UHGV virus genome: UHGV-0124814
Direction: 5' to 3' (one strand)
From: a virus
DNA: 16,162 nucleotides
Below the pieces are notes generated by a model. The model saw only the letters and a list, made by a program, of their open reading frames with translations, searched no databases and was not told the DNA's origin. Positions 38 through 15,025 of this stretch are shown in pieces. Position 1 is the first letter of the stretch. The number at the start of each line of letters is the position of its first letter. A program made the position numbers and the translations under genes.

Positions 38-706
38 ATGGTGAAATCAATGAAAAAAAACACAGATGATGGGGCTAAAATTTACACACCACTTACCCTA
101 AAGCTTTATGACTGGTGGGTTTTGGGAGTATCAAATCGGCTTGCATGGGGATGTCCTACAAAGGAACACCTTCTTCCACACTTTCTGGAACATTTAGGTA
201 ACAACCATCTGGATATTGGTGTTGGAACTGGGTTTTATCTTACTCACGTACCTGAGAGTAGTCTGATATCTTTAATGGATTTGAACGAAGCTAGCCTGAA
301 CGCGGCATCTACAAGGGCTGGGGAATCAAAAATTAAACATAAAATTAGCCATGATGTTTTTGAACCTTATCCCGCGGCGTTACATGGTCAATTTGATTCC
401 ATTTCCATGTTTTACCTTCTTCACTGCCTGCCTGGAAATATATCTACAAAAAGCTGTGTAATACGCAATGCGGCGCAGGCCTTAACTGACGATGGAACTC
501 TATACGGAGCCACAATTCTTGGCGATGGAGTTGTGCACAATAGCTTCGGTCAAAAACTGATGCGCATTTACAATCAGAAAGGCATCTTTTCAAACACAAA
601 AGATTCCGAAGAAGGCTTAACACATATACTCTCAGAGCATTTCGAGAATGTTAAAACCAAGGTTCAAGGTACTGTAGTAATGTTTTCCGCTTCAGGGAAA
701 AAATAG
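38..706 (+). CDS. Class I SAM-dependent methyltransferase, substrate unknown (cargo gene in the b-region position)
   Basis: 222-aa ORF; glycine-rich SAM-binding motif 'LDIGVGTGFYL', then 'LMDLNE' and 'FDSISMFYLLHCL'; visibly AT-rich; ATG at 38 lacks an obvious SD, alternative ATG at 50 is preceded by GGTGA. Confidence 0.7.
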   Translation: MVKSMKKNTDDGAKIYTPLTLKLYDWWVLGVSNRLAWGCPTKEHLLPHFLEHLGNNHLDIGVGTGFYLTHVPESSLISLMDLNEASLNAASTRAGESKIKHKISHDVFEPYPAALHGQFDSISMFYLLHCLPGNISTKSCVIRNAAQALTDDGTLYGATILGDGVVHNSFGQKLMRIYNQKGIFSNTKDSEEGLTHILSEHFENVKTKVQGTVVMFSASGKK

Positions 707-760: not shown

Positions 761-1345
761 TTACTCACTGACAGGGTTCGTAGGCCACTCAATATCAGGT
801 GCAGTTGATGTATCAACACGGTTCAGCAACACCCGATACTTCTTCCAGGCTTCCAGCAACGAGTTTTCTTCCTCCGTTGCGATTTCCAGATCTGCAGCAT
901 CCTGAAGCGGCGCAATATGCTCACTGGCTACCTGCATCAGGTTGTTTTTTGTTTCTTCCGCCTCCCGGATCCGGAACAGTTTTTCTGCTTCCGTATCCTT
1001 CACCCAGGCTGTGCCGTTCCACTTCTGAAACTCCCCTTCCGGCGATAACCAGGTAACATTTTCCGGTAACGGACCGAGTTCAGAAATAAATAACGCGTCC
1101 CCTGACGCTACGTCATAAACCGTTTTACCCCGATGGTCTTCAACGAGATGCCACGATGACTCATCACTGTTGAAAACAGCCACGAAGCCAGCCGGAATAT
1201 CTGGCGGTGCAATATAGGTACTGTTTGCAGGCAGACCTGTATGAGGTGGAATATATGCGTCACCTTCACCAATAAATTCATTAGTTCCGGCCAGCAGATT
1301 ATAAATTTTTATGGTCCGTGGTTGTTCACTCATTCTGAATGCCAT
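761..1345 (-). CDS. tfa: Tail fiber assembly protein Tfa
   Basis: 194-aa ORF '[31 protein letters not shown]...' matching lambda Tfa from memory; start ATG overlaps the stf stop (TAATG). Confidence 0.9.
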
Positions 1346-4862: not shown

Positions 4863-6026
4863 TCAACGAATACTGATGCCGGAAGCGGCTTTTTTGGTCA
4901 CAATCACCGTACAGTCGGTGATATTGCCTGCCCCCTGATTGCCTTTCTGGAAAATCTTAAACTCCAGAGTGACGCTACCACCACCACTAGGCATATCAAT
5001 AACTGCACTGTAACTACCGGGAATGGCCCCTTTAGTTTCTCTGGATGCGATTAATACGCCGTTTTTGCGAACTTCAAAACCATAACCCGTGTATCGCGTG
5101 CCTCCTGGGTTATTTCCGCTCCCCGGATCGTCATACGCTATACCGTTAAAAATAATGGGCGGAATAATAATCTGGCGGTCAAAGTTATGATCATCGCTGA
5201 TGGTGACTGTAACCGTACCGTTTGGTGTTTCCGTGTTACCCCACGTACCGACTTTTTTCGGGAAGGCTTTTGATACAGCTTTAACGAAATCCCCTCTGAC
5301 CTGGGTCGCCTCCAGCATGCCCTTAATCGTACAGTTCTGGTTAATCTTGACATTGTTGAGCGTTCCTGAGTTCGCATTCACACTGCCACTGATATCCGCA
5401 TTTTTAGCGGTCAGCTTTCCGTCTGATGTCAGGGAAAATACCGGAGGACTGCCACCGCTGGTAATGGTGGGGGCCGTCAGGCGCTTCAGGAACACGTCGT
5501 TCATGAATATCTGGTTGCCCTGCGCCACAAACATCGGCGTTTCATTCCCGTTTGCCGGGTCAATAAACGCGATACGGTTAGCGGCAACCAGAAACTGGCT
5601 CAGCTTGCCTTCCTCCGTGTCCTCCATGCTGAGGCCAATACCCGCGACATAATGTTTGCCGTCTTTGGTCTGCTCAATTTTGACGCCCCACATGGCATTC
5701 CATTTATCGTTAGCGTCCTTCCACTCTTTCGAAAACTCCTCCAGTCTGCTGGCGTTATCTTCCGTCAGCTCAAAGTTTTCCAGCAGTTCCTTGCCGAGAT
5801 GCGTTTTATTGATCAACCCTTTATAAAAATTCAGATAACCTTCCGCATCATCGCTCGCCCGACCGACGGCCTCCACAAATGCCGATTTACCAACGGTGTT
5901 CACGCTGCGGATATAAAAGTAATAATCATAACCTGGCTTAATATTGCTACTGGCGGCTATCCAGTACAGCGCCGTACCAAGATAACGCGCGCTGGTTTCA
6001 ACCTGCCTGATATCGATAAGCGGATT
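4863..6026 (-). pseudogene. J: C-terminal fragment (~387 codons) of tail tip/host-specificity protein J; N-terminal part of the gene deleted
   Basis: Open frame from 6026 down to the stop at 4863 with no ATG at its 5' end (first candidate is GTG at 5903); translation resembles the lambda J C-terminus as recalled. Confidence 0.8.
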
Positions 6027-6755: not shown

Positions 6756-7165
6756 CGCTTTATTACCATTCTCAGTTGATGCTGCAGCGCATAGCCCAGC
6801 TCTTTCGGAAGACGTTCACGCCGTATCCGTTCAATATTCTGTTTAAACGCCGTGGTAAGCGGCACCGCCATCGGGATTTTCACCACATCAATGGGGTAAC
6901 GGTTTTTCCCGGCCACACGCTGCATGACATGCCACCGGCCATTTTTCAGTTGCTGAATAAACGCGCCGGGAATACGACGGTTTCCCACCACAAGCACGCT
7001 GCCGCCACCTTTCAGGGATGAACGCTGCCCCTTTTTACGACGTCTGCGGCGGGAAAGGACAACCCGCGCGTTACCCAGCTTGATTACGGGCAAATCCTGC
7101 CAGTTCTGAATGGTACGGATACTCGCGCCGAAAATGTCAGCCAGCTGCTTTTTGTTGACTTCCAT
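6752..7165 (-). pseudogene. In-frame fusion of the first 23 codons of terminase small subunit Nu1 to the C-terminal part of a Z-like tail completion protein
   Basis: 'MEVNKKQLADIFGASIRTIQNWQ' is the lambda Nu1 N-terminus, then sequence switches at ~7096 to a basic tail ('DLPVIKLGNARVVLSRRRRRKKGQ...') that I believe is the gpZ C-terminus; ATG sits at the conserved distance from cos. Confidence 0.7.
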
Positions 7166-7375
7166 TGTTCATTCCACGGACAAAAACAGAGAAAGGAAAC
7201 GACAGAGGCCAAAAAGCCCGTTTTCAGCACCTGTCGTTTCCTTTCTTTTCAGAGGGTATTTTAAATAAAAACATTAAGTTATGACGAAGAAGAACGGAAA
7301 CGCCTTAAACCGGAAAATTTTCATAAATAGCGAAAACCCGCGAGGTCGCCGCCCCGTAACCTGTCGGATCGCCGG
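7166..7375 (-). other. Lambda-type cos packaging site (cosQ side ~7345-7375, cosN 12-nt end at 7333-7344, cosB toward Nu1)
   Basis: Reverse complement of 7333-7344 is GGGCGGCGACCT, flanked by 'GATCCGACAGGTTACG' on one side and 'CGCGGGTTTTCGCTATTTATGAAAATTTTCCGG...' leading to the Nu1 ATG on the other, as in the lambda left end; sequence diverges from lambda beyond ~7395. Confidence 0.8.
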
Positions 7376-7566
7376 AAAGGACCCACCAAAAATGATAATG
7401 ATTATCAAATACGTTTATCACACTGATATTCAGAATCACTACTGAAAGACTCCCTTTGTGGTGCGCGAGGGATGCGCATAAAAAAACCACCAGCAAATGC
7501 CAGTGGCTAAAGATATTCATTGCGAATAACCATCACAAAACAACTTAACTCGTGAGGGTAGAAATT

Positions 7567-7971
7567 TTACTCGAGGCCAAATTTCTTCTTTAAATAGGCC
7601 TTCGTTAACTCCAGCCCAACATCTTTGATTGTACTCAAAGGGGCATCGCTCATTGACTTTAATTTCTCAAAAACCGTAGGTTCATTTAATGCCTGGGCGA
7701 ATTCTTGTCCCTGCGCAGATAGTCGCACGTCGGTACCCATATCTAGCATATGGCCACAATGGCGCATGTAGCCCAGTTTAGTTATGTCATCCGTTATTAG
7801 ATCTTTATTACTGATATAACCTTGCTCAATAAGAAGTAGATAATGAAACATCCCTTCATTCGAGCAGATATCGTACCCCGCATTAGCTAAGTCTTTTGTA
7901 GATATAAAGGGAGTTTTCGCTTTCAAAAATACCTCAAGCATCCCCTTCATGTATTCTAAATTTTTAACCAC
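7567..7971 (-). CDS. Hypothetical protein, 134 aa, AT-rich moron
   Basis: GTG start at 7971 preceded by strong SD (TAAGGAGGTTTTT-GTG); no family recognised. Confidence 0.55.
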   Translation of the reverse strand: MVKNLEYMKGMLEVFLKAKTPFISTKDLANAGYDICSNEGMFHYLLLIEQGYISNKDLITDDITKLGYMRHCGHMLDMGTDVRLSAQGQEFAQALNEPTVFEKLKSMSDAPLSTIKDVGLELTKAYLKKKFGLE

Positions 7972-8106
7972 AAAAACCTCCTTAGGATAATTGGAGGTCT
8001 AGAATACCGTTTGCAAGCACGTTGATAAATCATTATCACAGGCACTCAATGAATGCCTGCTGTAATTGCGTACGGTAATGAACGTAAAAAACCGCCCGAG
8101 GTATAT

Positions 8107-8331
8107 TTAGACATTAGATGGCGCTTTGTCAGTATAGACCCGGTACGCCCTGACAAACATCCCGTTACATTCAGAGTCCGCCTTGATATACGCCAATTCG
8201 TAACCCCGATGCTTTAGCTCTTCACGAGCTCTTTTCTCTTCCTTAGCCATGAAGTTAAGATCTTTAATTTCTGAGTAGGTATATGTTCCCACTATAAAAT
8301 CTCTGCCTGGCCGTCCATTTATCAGTTCCAT
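8107..8331 (-). CDS. Hypothetical protein, 74 aa, AT-rich moron (ORF-track version extends to a TTG at 8397)
   Basis: ATG at 8331 preceded by GGGAGGA SD; protein 'MELINGRPGRDFIVGTYTYSEIKDLNFMAKEEKRAREELKHRGYELAYIKADSECNGMFVRAYRVYTDKAPSNV'; no family recognised. Confidence 0.5.
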   Translation of the reverse strand: MELINGRPGRDFIVGTYTYSEIKDLNFMAKEEKRAREELKHRGYELAYIKADSECNGMFVRAYRVYTDKAPSNV

Positions 8332-8424
8332 GTGTCCTCCCAAAAAGTTGGTAGTCAGAACATACCATGCTAAGCGAGGTGAAAGCACCTTTATCAAGCC
8401 CCCCGCAGATAGACTTTGTAATGG

Positions 8425-8712
8425 CTACTTCTTCAGAAATGATTCGATGAACTCACGCCGGGGATGACGATAGTTCAGAATATCTTCTGGCATCCTCATA
8501 AAGCGGTTGTTGCCGTCTTTGGCAGTAACGAAACAGCAGTGAACTCCGCAGACATCCGTTTTGATCGTGTCGCCATACTCAAAAAGCAACTGCGCCATCT
8601 TCTCTTGCCATTCTTGCGGCATAGCCTCCATGAATACTCTCGGCATCACGCAGAACGACGCATGCGTCAGGCCAAACCACAATTGCAGGTCTTTACGATA
8701 TTCTTCATCCAT
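8425..8712 (-). CDS. Hypothetical Cys-containing protein, 95 aa ('...DVCGVHCCF...'), moron
   Basis: ATG at 8712 with AAGG ~10 nt upstream, lying 19 nt downstream of a terminator-like hairpin; no family recognised. Confidence 0.5.
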   Translation of the reverse strand: MDEEYRKDLQLWFGLTHASFCVMPRVFMEAMPQEWQEKMAQLLFEYGDTIKTDVCGVHCCFVTAKDGNNRFMRMPEDILNYRHPRREFIESFLKK

Positions 8713-8930: not shown

Positions 8931-9398
8931 TCATCGAAGGCATTGCGTCCTGATGTATTCCTGAAGCGTTCTCAGTGCTGTTTGGTCGCGGATAATTCCG
9001 TCCCGGATACCGAGAACGTTTCGTCCAGCAACTGGAGAGAGTTCGACGGTGGCATCATTGCCCATGCCGGAGGCGCTGGAGGTTTCGGCTGAGGATGGCA
9101 CAGGGCATTTTCCTTTGACGAGCACCCTGCCACCATTATCAAGCTTGCGACGAAGAGCATCATTTTCAGCTTTCGCATCAGCTAACTCCTTCGTGTATTT
9201 TGCATCGAGCGCAGCAACATCACGCTGACGCATCTGCATGTCAGTAATTGCCGCGTTCGCCAGCTTCAGTTCTCTGACATTTTTGTCGCGCTGGGCTTTG
9301 TAGGTAATGGCGTTATCACGGTAATGATTCAGCCCCAGACTAAGCACACCACAGGCTACCAGCAGGACAATAATCACCACACACAGAACACGGTTCAT
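8931..9398 (-). CDS. Rz: Rz i-spanin
   Basis: From ATG at 9398 (SD GGTGGTGA): '[17 protein letters not shown]...[60 protein letters not shown]...' closely resembling lambda Rz; the longer track ORF starts at an upstream codon. Confidence 0.85.
8972..9178 (-). CDS. Rz1: Rz1 o-spanin lipoprotein, embedded in Rz in the +1 frame
   Basis: 68-aa ORF '[21 protein letters not shown]...' with lipobox 'VAGC' and proline-rich stretch '[11 protein letters not shown]'; embedded position typical of Rz1. Confidence 0.8.
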
Positions 9399-9497
9399 AT
9401 CACCACCAACGGATTGTCCAGACCAGAACAGCAATGGCCACAATACGAATGGCAAATGCCATTGCCCGAATAAGTTCAGCACTCATCTTTTTAAAGT

Positions 9498-10433
9498 TCA
9501 CGATTTCAGCGCAATGACCAGTTTTGCCAGCCCATACAGCATCGGAGACACAGCAATAGCGTATGTATTTTTCCAGTAATACGTCGTGTCACCACAAATC
9601 CACGGCACATTTACAGCACTGCCACCATGACACTGCGCGTTAAACACAGTGAGGTCAGCACGAAACTGCTTCAGCATGGCTGTAAACAGCGCAGGTTGCT
9701 GTGCGTAGGTGGCGGCGCTCATGTCAAACTCTCCCTGCATCCAGCACACCGCCAGCAACACATTTTTCGGGTTCTTCTGTAATGCCGCTTTGGTGCGTGC
9801 GATCAGGTCCTGATATAACGGTTTACCCACACCCCAGCGTGCCGAATCCTGGCTGGCCCCCGTGTCCGCACTGAATGTCCCCTCCGCGCCCTGGGTGAAT
9901 GCCGAACCACCACGACAGCATGGTACCAGCAGGATCCCCGCGTTATTCGGGATATACGGAAGCAGTTTTTTGGCAATATGTAAGCCCTGGCCGACACAGC
10001 CGTACTGCCCTTTGCTCAGGTCTGCCTTCGGATGATTCAGCGTACTCATATCCTGCACATCATGCAGACAGTGGTCAGCCGGGATGATGTCGTTATACGT
10101 ACAACTCTCTCCACCCGGAGTTACCGTGCTGCGGCGCGCCAGCTGTTTAATGCGCGGATCCGGAGCATCGTAAGAATCCGGTAACGGAAGCCCTTCACCG
10201 TAGGCCATGCCGTTGGACTGTCCGGCAAGCACAACCACGTAGAACCAGTCCGGCTCAGATGAAGGGCCGACCTGTGGATCTCCTTCAATAGCCACCGCCT
10301 GCATCAGTGTGTACGGCGTAATGGCAACCGGTCCGCCATATGGCTGCCAGCCCTCTTTCAGTTTGTGTGTCAGCTTTTCCGCAAGGTCTGACGGCGACGC
10401 CGCCCTGACAACATCATAGTGTTTAAATGCCAT
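9498..10433 (-). CDS. Prophage NanS-p-like sialate 9-O-acetylesterase (N-terminal DUF1737-like segment plus esterase core), probably C-terminally truncated
   Basis: 311-aa ORF with 'VVLAGQSNGMAYGEGLPLPD', 'GILLVPCCRGGSAF', 'CWMQGEFD', 'WICGDTTYYWK' resembling E. coli NanS/YjhS as recalled; strong SD GGGAGGA; ORF ends ~100 nt before Rz. Confidence 0.8.
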   Translation of the reverse strand: MAFKHYDVVRAASPSDLAEKLTHKLKEGWQPYGGPVAITPYTLMQAVAIEGDPQVGPSSEPDWFYVVVLAGQSNGMAYGEGLPLPDSYDAPDPRIKQLARRSTVTPGGESCTYNDIIPADHCLHDVQDMSTLNHPKADLSKGQYGCVGQGLHIAKKLLPYIPNNAGILLVPCCRGGSAFTQGAEGTFSADTGASQDSARWGVGKPLYQDLIARTKAALQKNPKNVLLAVCWMQGEFDMSAATYAQQPALFTAMLKQFRADLTVFNAQCHGGSAVNVPWICGDTTYYWKNTYAIAVSPMLYGLAKLVIALKS

Positions 10434-10923: not shown

Positions 10924-11000
10924 TGGCGCGTTGTACTGGATTCGAACCAGTGACCGATTGCTTAGAAGGCAATTGCTCTGTCCGGCTGAGCTAACAACGC
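10924..11000 (-). tRNA. tRNA-Arg (anticodon TCT)
   Basis: Reverse complement folds as cloverleaf: acceptor GCGTTGT/ACAACGC, D-arm GCTC..GAGC, anticodon stem ATTGC/GCAAT with loop CTTCTAA, T-arm ACTGG-TTCGAAT-CCAGT, encoded CCA. Confidence 0.85.
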
Positions 11001-11013
11001 ATGATGCAGATAA

Positions 11014-11090
11014 TGGACCGCCATCGGGGACTTGAACCCCGCGCAGCCAGCTTCGAAGGCTGGCGCTCTTTCCTGATGAGCTAATGGCGG
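11014..11090 (-). tRNA. tRNA-Arg (anticodon TCG)
   Basis: Cloverleaf: acceptor CCGCCAT/ATGGCGG, D-arm GCTC..GAGC, anticodon stem CCAGC/GCTGG with loop CTTCGAA, T-arm CGGGG-TTCAAGT-CCCCG, encoded CCA. Confidence 0.8.
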
Positions 11091-11097
11091 TATGTGA

Positions 11098-11173
11098 TGG
11101 TGGCCCTTGCTGGATTTGAACCAGCGACCTGGCGATTATGAGTCGCTCGCTCTCACCACTGAGCTAAAGGGCC
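11098..11173 (-). tRNA. tRNA-Ile2-like (anticodon CAT; could formally be Met)
   Basis: Cloverleaf: acceptor GGCCCTT/AAGGGCC, anticodon loop CTCATAA, T-arm GCTGG-TTCAAAT-CCAGC, CCA; overall very similar to E. coli tRNA-Ile2 as recalled. Confidence 0.8.
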
Positions 11174-11222: not shown

Positions 11223-11678
11223 TCAAACGATTAAATCCTGAACTTCCCTGACTGTCTGCTCAAAACGTCCGGTCTCCAGTTCAACGCCAATCGCACGACG
11301 CCCGAGCGCCAGTGCCGCTTTTACCGTTGAACCTGAGCCCATAAAAAAATCTGCAACCTGGTCTCCCGGACGACTGCTCGCGTTGATTATCTGCTGCAAC
11401 ATTTCTGCCGGTTTTTCGCACGGATGTTTCCCTGGATAGTACTGCACCGGTTTATACGTCCACACATCGGTGTACGGCACCTGCACCGTCACACCGAAAT
11501 ACCTCCGCAAATTTTTATATTCACTCAGCAGTTCCATATACTGCCGGTTCAGCTCACTGTATGTGCTGACCAGTTGGTAATGGGACTTTTCCAGTTCTCC
11601 CCGCTGATGTTTCTCTTCTGCCACCCGGGCAAACAGCGACTGTAATTTCAGATAATCGCTTTCGTTCGGTATCCGGCG
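11223..11678 (-). pseudogene. C-terminal fragment of a phage DNA N6-adenine/N4-cytosine methyltransferase; N-terminal half absent
   Basis: Frame open from 11678 with no ATG (first start-like codon is GTG at 11624); contains 'HPCEKP' and C-terminal SAM motif 'FFMGSGST' but no DPPY-type motif. Confidence 0.65.
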
Positions 11679-11753: not shown

Positions 11754-11942
11754 ATGGAAACGTTATTACCAAACGTTAATACGTCTGAAGGTTGTTTTGA
11801 AATTGGTGTCACTATCAGTAACCCTGTATTTACTGAAGATGCCATTAACAAGAGAAAACACGAACGGGAGCTATTAAATAAAATATGCATTCTTTCAATG
11901 CTGGCCCGTTTACGTCCGATACAAAAAGGATGCTGGCAATGA
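11754..11942 (+). CDS. Hypothetical small protein, 62 aa
   Basis: ATG preceded by SD (GAGGACGCGATA-ATG); stop overlaps the next ATG (ATGA); no family recognised. Confidence 0.45.
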   Translation: METLLPNVNTSEGCFEIGVTISNPVFTEDAINKRKHERELLNKICILSMLARLRPIQKGCWQ

Positions 11943-12130
11943 ATACAGCATTTGCACTTGTTCTGACAGTTTTTCTTGTTTCCGGAGAGCCAGTTGATAT
12001 TGCAGTCAGTGTTCACAGGACAATGCAGGAGTGTGTGACTGCAGCAACCGAACAGAAAATTCCCGGTAACTGTTACCCGGTCGATAAAGTTATTCACCAG
12101 GATAATAACGAAATCCCGGCAGGTCTTTAA
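11939..12130 (+). CDS. Hypothetical small protein, 63 aa, with N-terminal hydrophobic segment (signal peptide or membrane anchor) and two Cys
   Basis: ATG at 11939 with AAAGGA 8 nt upstream; 'MNTAFALVLTVFLVSGEPVDIAVSV...'; the track ORF starts 18 codons earlier at a less likely ATG. Confidence 0.45.
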   Translation: MNTAFALVLTVFLVSGEPVDIAVSVHRTMQECVTAATEQKIPGNCYPVDKVIHQDNNEIPAGL

Positions 12131-14694: not shown

Positions 14695-14755
14695 TGTTCA
14701 ACCGTCGCCAGTTGTCGTTGATATTCTGCAACTGGCGCGTTCCGGAGTGATAGCC

Positions 14756-15025
14756 ATGAGCGAACAGTACCTGATAACGCTCGACGAGTGGAAACCAAAA
14801 CGGTTCAGTCTCCCAATAACAAACACTACCCTGGTGAAATACGGAAAACTAGGATACATCGTTCCAAGACCACAAAAAATTCGTGGGCGTTGGCTGATAG
14901 ATCGCCGAGCAGTATTTGTTGGGCCTGGTGAAACGGGAATTGCGCCGGAAATTCATACTGGCGATGATGATGCACTGAAGGAGATTTTAACTCATGTCAC
15001 CGAGGCCACGAAAAAACAGCACTGA
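14756..15025 (+). CDS. xis: Excisionase (Xis-like)
   Basis: 89-aa ORF from ATG at 14756 (SD GGAG 8 nt upstream), immediately upstream of and overlapping int by 32 nt. Confidence 0.65.
   Translation: MSEQYLITLDEWKPKRFSLPITNTTLVKYGKLGYIVPRPQKIRGRWLIDRRAVFVGPGETGIAPEIHTGDDDALKEILTHVTEATKKQH

Follow-up and report, generated by a model that had tools for sequence, protein, structure and literature searches.

How does a complete lambda-type cos site come to lie in a DNA element that contains neither terminase nor head genes, and what does its presence mean? This question is raised by the virus genome UHGV-0124814, a stretch of 16,162 nucleotides which was analyzed over its full length and is referred to as the window in the following. 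An earlier note made from the sequence had pointed to the cos site next to a residual Nu1 gene and offered two explanations, either satellite-like behavior with packaging in trans by a lambdoid helper, or passive retention after a recent deletion.

A lambdoid prophage remnant between potB and potC

The element turned out to be a lambdoid prophage remnant inserted between potB and potC, as seen on contigs coding for the exact Nu1::Z fusion protein described below, with a length of 16,806 bp between its att cores. The core sequence CACCTT[T/C]TTATTCA is present at both ends of the element, just beyond both ends of the window, and the phage end provides a replacement 3' end of potB. The minus strand carries the genes in the same order as in lambda, namely Rz/Rz1, morons, cos, Nu1::Z, U, a truncated V (V'), a truncated J ('J), lom, stf, and tfa. 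A truncated gene for a SASA esterase, three tRNA genes, and part of a DNA methyltransferase gene follow on the other side, and the plus strand codes for dicB, DUF1482, an exonuclease of 823 aa, xis, and int. Apart from deletions, the element is colinear with an intact prophage (L002), and no repressor/cro, O/P, Q, holin, endolysin, terminase, or head gene was found among the ORFs and gene calls of the remnant. With its lambda gene order, its truncated or missing essential modules, and its flanking att repeats, the element is a defective (cryptic) lambdoid prophage.

The int and xis genes proved to be intact, as claimed previously. The lambda-family integrase is of full length and aligns to lambda Int residues 22–354 with conserved catalytic R, K, H, R, H, and Y positions, and Xis matches known excisionase families (Table 1). 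The attP junction predicted for the excised element, ATCATCTAATTCGCT-CACCTTYTTATTCA-TAAGGTGGAGCAC, was present on two IMG/VR contigs (L022 and L023) of phage relatives with 96–98% identity, one of which (L023) runs past the exonuclease gene into further DNA missing from the remnant. Searching for an excised form via the attP pattern matched only these 96–98% identical relatives and not the remnant itself. The attP-form relatives confirm the att core and place the Int/att system in a real phage family. A promoter scan yielded sites that were no more numerous than in shuffled sequence.

Compared to lambda, the remnant has a relative length of 34.7% as a monomer, 69.3% as a dimer, and 104% as a trimer (50,418 bp), and a dimer of the longer variant L006 would reach ~89%. 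The packaging range of lambda extends from roughly 75–78% to 105%, which places the monomer below the packaging minimum, as already stated in the earlier note, and the trimer at the edge of the upper limit.

Several further features were recorded in the remainder of the window. The three tRNA genes (positions 10924–11173) consist of Arg-tct, Arg-tcg, and one with a CAT anticodon, which is assigned to Met by ARAGORN versus Ile in the RefSeq annotation of relatives. The DUF1737 plus SASA gene at 9498–10433 (sialate O-acetylesterase, NanS-p-like) codes for 311 aa, compared to 617 aa in an intact relative. The genes for the cell-division inhibitor DicB and DUF1482 are kept at 11754–12130 (+) upstream of the exonuclease-xis-int operon, and the adjoining immunity region is gone. 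A cargo gene for a class I SAM methyltransferase is located at 38–706 (+), on the opposite strand beyond tfa, and a second partial tfa copy outside the window (L007:17185–17451) is ~91% identical to window positions 783–926; the same layout of SAM methyltransferase and second tfa was also observed in relatives at other integration sites. Finally, the Ala/Ser/Thr-rich repeats of stf (coding for an 898-aa side tail fibre) between 2360 and 3644 give rise to spurious long ORFs: the strand opposite stf contains two of them, with 394 and 236 aa, and a third one of 335 aa lies on the stf strand in a different reading frame. One of these ORFs was chosen by a gene caller on contigs ending inside stf (L010, L011, and L013).

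Structure of the cos site

A complete lambda-type cos site was found on the minus strand between positions 7190 and 7384, consisting of cosQ, the 12-nt cohesive end, I2, R3, I1, R2, and R1 (Table 1). We take cosQ to be lambda bp 48,473–48,479, i.e., −30 to −24, which agrees with the count in our alignment. The cos sequence was aligned to those of lambda DE3, in which the cos site is annotated, and of resequenced lambda, giving a register in which lambda bp n corresponds to window position 7355−n and lambda bp 1 to position 7354. The subsites were assigned according to the definitions of Feiss and colleagues (PMC4669245, PMC9026076). Comparing the minus strand of positions 7166–7400 to the cos-Nu1 junctions of lambda and lambdoid phages resulted in 95.7–97.7% identity over ~306–319 bp with an E value of ~1e-144, which rules out chance similarity.

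Table 1. Features of the prophage remnant in the window, including substitutions relative to lambda and deletion junctions
Feature	Position	Strand	Remarks
cosQ, GGGTCCT (packaging-termination subsite)	7378–7384	−	identical to lambda; distance to cosN as in lambda
cosN, 16 bp (12-nt cohesive end plus 2 bp on each side)	7341–7356	−	identical to lambda, DE3, PhiR11_1, Turner, and 2H10
12-nt 5' cohesive end, GGGCGGCGACCT	7343–7354	−	sequence and flanks identical to lambda
I2, cosN-cosB spacer	7306–7340	−	identical to lambda, indel-free
cosB R3 (lambda bp 50–65)	7290–7305	−	identical to lambda, including bp 56, 58, and 59
I1, IHF-binding/bending segment, R3 to R2	7247–7289	−	identical to lambda
cosB R2 (inverted R sequence), AGAAAGGAAACGACAG	7231–7246	−	identical to lambda
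cosB R1, CTGTCGTTTCCTTTCT	7190–7205	−	identical to lambda
Nu1 ATG	7165	−	mapped from the lambda alignment
T>C at −17	7371		outside the defined subsites; C also in PhiR11_1, Turner, and 2H10
G>A at +134	7221		R2-R1 spacer; common to phage 2H10
A>G at +137	7218		R2-R1 spacer; common to phage 2H10
Nu1 codons 1–23 fused in frame to Z residues 79–192, 137 aa	6752–7165	−	Pfam Phage_Nu1 and Minor_tail_Z
U, tail terminator, full length, 131 aa	6360–6755	−	Pfam Phage_tail_U; 100% identical to L002
V, tail tube, N-terminal fragment, ~111 codons	5957–6382	−	Pfam Phage_TTP_12, profile positions 1–94 of 135
J, tail tip, C-terminal fragment	4863–5903	−	Pfam Phage_Tail_Tip, Ig_GpJ_C; phrog_2148
Rz/Rz1	8931–9482	−	lambda gene order
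Low-GC moron block	7567–8712	−	between Rz and cos
Terminator-like hairpin	7485–7508	−	end of moron cassette, just upstream of cos; consensus scan only
xis, excisionase	14747–15025	+	PF07825, phrog_629; gap-free colinear with annotated L003 excisionase
int, lambda-family tyrosine integrase, full length, 372 aa	14994–16112	+	aligned to lambda Int
Deletion J to V	6018/6019		8,474 bp lost; vs. L002
Deletion Z codon 78 to Nu1 codon 24	7095–7097		7,948 bp lost; TCC/GGA microhomology; vs. L002
Deletion of SASA esterase (part), holin, endolysin	9557/9558		3,624 bp lost; 2-bp microhomology
Deletion of hok, DUF968, RusA, Q antiterminator, rest of DNA methyltransferase	11670/11671		4,722 bp lost; 2-bp microhomology; vs. 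L006

The cos sites of lambda-like phages have been described as ~200-bp units consisting of cosQ, cosN, and cosB, with cosQ acting in termination and I2 being required for efficient termination (PMC4669245). They contain a partly symmetric cosN of 16 bp and a cosB of the arrangement R3-I1-R2-R1 with an inverted R2 and lambda-specific R3 bases at bp 55–63, R3 representing the critical gpNu1 binding site (PMC9026076). Within the 219 bp from cosQ to the Nu1 start, the site analyzed here differs from lambda by three substitutions and no indels, and all three substitutions are found in plaque-forming phages (PhiR11_1, Turner, or 2H10). The sequence is free of indels from bp 1 to bp 189, and the spacing between cosN and cosB is therefore unchanged versus lambda; a 3-bp deletion is already deleterious at this point, and the spacing is exact here. 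Because a strict regular expression for the IHF consensus gave no match in the I1 segment, I1 was assigned by its identity to lambda. Judged by its sequence, the site shows every feature of a lambda-family cos, namely the 16-bp cosN, cosQ, the R3-I1-R2-R1 order of cosB, and the spacing. The near lambda identity of cosN and its flanks claimed in the earlier note was borne out, and looking for inactivating changes relative to lambda revealed none in the defined subsites. Homology to lambda stops ~50 bp upstream of cosN (approximately at position 7407) with unrelated sequence beyond, and there is a 2-bp insertion versus lambda immediately upstream of cosQ.

Genes adjoining cos

The residual Nu1 gene downstream of cos consists of exactly 23 codons (MEVNKKQLADIFGASIRTIQNWQ), as had been counted before, which are fused to the last 114 codons of Z. 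Because the stub stops at residue 23, lacking E24 of the recognition helix (residues 17–24) and the wing (residues 31–39), it is not expected to bind DNA. The genes A, W, B, C, D, E, FI, and FII are absent together with the first 78 codons of Z. The following gene U is complete, and the fragment of V is joined out of frame to that of J.

The moron block on the other side of cos has a low GC content (39–44%) and contains ORFs of 134, 96/74, and 95 aa, which match only PHROGs of unknown function, namely phrog_585, phrog_6100, and, with similarity confined to its C-terminal part, phrog_3527. Because the third ORF covers only the C-terminal part of phrog_3527, it is probably truncated. The ORFs of the block gave no matches in Pfam, NCBIfam, PADLOC, or PDB, including a comparison of the 134-aa ORF upstream of cos with Rpp structures, although a remote fold could escape such a sequence search. 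An Rpp-like or defence role of these cos-adjoining ORFs was considered and rejected, as only PHROGs of unknown function were matched. The entire block is missing from the otherwise near-identical prophage L002.

Deletion history

Using the intact colinear prophage L002 and the longer remnant variant L006 as references, we mapped four deletions, each with 2–3 bp of microhomology at the junction (Table 1), and at least these four have shaped the element. The absence of A through FII mentioned in the earlier note is explained by one of them, the 7,948-bp deletion relative to L002. The kept parts of the late region show 99.7% (6,019 bp) and 100% (1,080 bp) identity to L002, which indicates recent decay. 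The variant L006 (GCA_021449925.1) still contains the 4,722 bp lost at 11670/11671 and is otherwise 100% identical to the window; the comparison of both captures stepwise decay within one clone. Adding the lost segments to the present element (16,806 + 8,474 + 7,948 + 3,624 + 4,722 bp) yields a parent of at least 41.6 kb, with the missing immunity and replication regions uncounted. About one third of the parent is retained, and the persistence of any one 200-bp segment is therefore unremarkable.

Distribution and relatives

The exact Nu1::Z fusion gene was detected on at least 21 public contigs, and the sequence was obtained for ten of them; GCA_020857475.1 and GCA_021449925.1 are examples of assemblies from carrier isolates. 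The cos site is 100% identical in nine of these ten, the flanks are identical in the four that include them, and the window as a whole is 100% identical to L007 and L008. The carriers do not differ from one another in the element or in 3.6 kb of flanking sequence (potCD and potBA-pepT), and another E. coli deviates from these flanks by ~1%. These identical flanks indicate that the carriers represent one clone and that the host is E. coli. The Nu1::Z junction was found neither in any of 5,426 complete E. coli genomes nor in 185,579 GTDB species-representative genomes, and a search of IMG/VR resulted in one match, a 4.8-kb isolate contig (L014). Comparing cos across carrier strains had been proposed in the earlier note; the conservation is indeed nearly complete, but as the copies come from one clone and are identical, it is uninformative on selection, neither detecting nor excluding it.

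A different remnant, L003 (NZ_CP148277.1), occupies the same potB/potC att site and shows 98.3% identity over int-xis-exo. It keeps the immunity-side genes, Q, and RusA, carries a Lom fragment directly joined to the tRNA region, and lacks cos, U, Z, and all tail-shaft genes. An independent head-gene deletion, in which a near-complete Nu1 is fused to Z and cos is spared, was observed in two E. coli prophages (L004:12076–13073 and L005:12076–12845), one of them at the DLP12 site, which share the annotated 194-aa product WP_001594847.1. Another contig (L015:600–1080) contains the identical Nu1::Z fusion but L002-type sequence upstream of cos, where the window has a different sequence (7407–7560), and additionally an A>C exchange at −8, adjoining cosN. 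L015 is a metagenome contig of 3x coverage and represents either a post-deletion recombination at cos or an assembly chimera. The cos-proximal segment comprising R2-R1 and the 5' end of Nu1 was matched in 4,494 of the 5,426 E. coli genomes, often annotated as nohD as in DLP12, and the matches with this annotation are 100% identical to window positions 7095–7240. Lambda-type cos sites that are orphaned or nearly so are thus commonplace.

Origin and possible roles of the stranded cos site

We regard it as likely that the intact cos site of lambda specificity has been retained passively in a lambdoid prophage that underwent repeated recent deletions and resides between potB and potC in one E. coli lineage. 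The immunity and replication regions were lost earlier, and four illegitimate deletions at microhomologies removed the terminase and head genes, most tail genes, the holin and endolysin genes, and the Q region. The ~200-bp cos site was spared by chance, as one deletion has its left end 69 bp inside Nu1. Passive retention had been one of the two options of the earlier note and gains weight from the microhomology junctions, the 99.7–100% identity to L002, the restriction to one clone, and the sister remnant without cos. The remnant is unable to produce terminase. If a phage with the packaging specificity of lambda is co-resident or superinfects, its terminase should still recognize and nick this cos in trans. 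By analogy to the 'passive prophage' helper-packaging experiments, in which helper terminase acts on a chromosomal cos (PMC4669245), the site is probably still cleavable. A double-strand break at cos may then turn the locus into a hotspot for recombination with phages similar to lambda, for which DLP12 offers a documented example, and the mosaic boundary directly beside cos fits such cos-stimulated recombination. Packaging initiated in situ would proceed one way via Nu1 and the tail genes toward potB-potA-pepT and would be abortive because there is no downstream cos for termination, which requires a downstream cosQ and cosN, cosQ being unnecessary for initiation (PMC4669245). In rare cases, excision by Int/Xis and multimerization may lead to the packaging of a trimer (50.4 kb), and the remnant would be at most an inefficient packaging substrate. 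Occasional mobilization is possible, considering the intact int, xis, and att cores and a trimer length within the lambda packaging range. That the orphan cos indeed lets resident lambda-specificity phages mobilize either the remnant (as a trimer, in the manner of a proto-satellite without hijack genes) or the adjacent potB-potA-pepT genes (by cos-type lateral transduction) seems highly improbable to us.

The alternative favored by a satellite-like interpretation is that the remnant acts as a hitchhiker, which excises via its own Int and Xis, forms multimers, enters helper capsids as a trimer, and spreads like a cos-PICI. It draws on the intact cos, the full-length Int and Xis, the presence of both att cores, and the attP form of the relatives, which indicates a functional Int/att system in this family of phages. 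We rejected the size fit of the trimer as evidence for a satellite because almost any element of 9.5–25 kb has some multiple in the packaging range, and at 104% of lambda, the trimer sits at the edge of the limit. Precedents are provided by the ~15-kb PICI EcCICFT073, of which three copies are packaged per lambda-size capsid (PMC6092414), and by the defective O157 prophage Sp4, which is packaged, probably by the terminase of the same-cos prophage Sp14 (PMC2669165). The remnant does have an integrase of its own and att sites (16,806 bp apart) as PICIs do, but these are not unique to the island, as the phage relatives L022 and L023 use the same int/att system and the potB/potC site is also occupied by the different remnant L003. 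A replication module (primase/helicase-type genes plus an origin) that would make concatemers was not found among the ORFs and gene calls, three small ORFs being without assigned function. Likewise, no repressor and no helper-responsive regulator of the AlpA or Stl type was detected in the remnant, and no gene for packaging hijack or interference (an Rpp beside cos, a capsid-size redirector, or an own TerS), only Nu1(1–23)::Z being present downstream of cos. With the loss of the pL/immunity region that lay upstream of the dicB-exo-xis-int operon, no induction route is evident, and V', 'J, Nu1'::'Z, and the truncated esterase gene amount to pseudogene debris. Moreover, we saw no sign of high-frequency horizontal transfer, since the carriers form a single clone with identical flanks and the junction is absent from the complete E. 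coli genomes and the GTDB representatives, the sole IMG/VR match being an isolate contig. As judged from its sequence, the remnant lacks the testable defining features of satellites and PICIs, i.e., replication, a hijack gene, a unique att site, and horizontal spread. The satellite-like behavior suggested in the earlier note is therefore not upheld, and we consider it very unlikely.

Two further explanations concern the state of the cos site itself. It may be dead in its present context due to the 2-bp insertion or the foreign DNA upstream of cosQ, or due to lost cis features such as read-through late transcription. The end of lambda homology ~50 bp upstream of cosN and the position of the insertion directly at cosQ would be in line with this, but none of the defined subsites is altered, the cosN-cosB spacing is as in lambda, and other lambdoid phages likewise vary at the bases adjoining cosQ. 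Moreover, cos has been described as the ~200-bp cosQ-cosN-cosB unit, in which cosQ serves termination rather than initiation (PMC4669245), and on plasmids, cloned cos fragments are functional outside their native context (PMC6092414). A dead cos site is therefore very unlikely in our view. Conversely, cos may be kept by selection for an advantage to the host or the prophage, either as a recombination entry point at which incoming lambdoid phages exchange the flanking moron and tail-fibre genes or as a decoy for helper terminase. The cos of DLP12 stimulates recombination between lambda and the prophage (PMC3945230), a mosaic boundary adjoins cos in the remnant, and L015 combines the identical fusion with other sequence upstream. 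In addition, the independent head-gene deletions of L004 and L005 also spare cos, which could hint at non-random retention, and the segment of R2-R1 and the Nu1 5' end is widespread in E. coli genomes, as described above. Against selection, the identical copies offer no divergence for a test of constraint, the sister remnant L003 has lost cos, and L015 may be chimeric; furthermore, a single chromosomal cos would be a negligible sink compared to hundreds of phage genomes. We regard selection on cos as extremely unlikely and retain the interpretation as a passively retained leftover.

Comparison with known systems

The cos site of the remnant equals that of lambda in its subsites and their spacing, with the three substitutions within 219 bp all falling outside the subsites. 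It differs in its context, as it is located in a terminase-less remnant with unrelated upstream sequence beyond approximately −50 and the 2-bp insertion beside cosQ. Cosmids and plasmids with a cloned lambda cos likewise lack their own terminase and are packaged only in trans, but cosmids replicate and multimerize, whereas the remnant is chromosomal and without an origin. A cloned lambda cos renders pET28a transferable by lambda and phi80 (PMC6092414).

The size of the remnant and its own integrase are shared with cos-PICIs such as EcCICFT073, which are also integrated elements of ~15–17 kb and have lambda-like cosQ and cosN sequences (PMC6092414, PMC6739421, PMC9026076). Three copies in each lambda-size capsid would likewise be the mode of packaging to expect for the remnant. 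However, cos-PICIs have their own origin and replication genes, helper-dependent induction, a TerS-redirecting Rpp, and a non-lambda cosB, EcCICFT073 using its own replication system to make concatemers (PMC6092414). In contrast, the remnant has a true lambda cosB, none of the PICI modules, and truncated phage genes.

Closer parallels are found among defective prophages. Sp4 of O157 Sakai, which is near full phage size, has no working terminase. It shares an identical cos with a sibling prophage and is packaged, probably by the terminase of this sibling (Asadulghani et al. 2009, PMC2669165). Nu1 of Sp4 is merely interrupted by an IS, and Sp4 is amplified by regional replication of a neighboring prophage (PMC2669165), whereas the remnant comprises 16.8 kb without replication genes. 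DLP12 of E. coli K-12, with cos and nohD, is likewise a defective lambdoid prophage that has lost head genes and kept a lambda-type cos. Qin is a further cryptic prophage of K-12 with cos and nohA. DLP12 has a whole, functional Nu1 homologue, compared to only 23 codons fused to Z in the remnant, and both also differ in their integration sites (potB/potC here) and their sets of deletions. The cos region of DLP12 recombines with infecting lambda, half of the junctions adjoining cos (PMC3945230).

The locus represents a clean case of prophage decay, in which the four nested microhomology deletions can be reconstructed base by base and a fully intact packaging signal persists after the loss of its enzyme. 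When cut by related phages, such cos sites promote recombination between phages and prophages, and thereby mosaicism, and possibly low-level mobilization. These two effects have documented precedents in DLP12, the O157 prophage pool, and the cos-PICIs, and the locus adds no new principle to them; we classify the remnant as a further cryptic lambdoid prophage that, similar to DLP12, contains a stranded cos.
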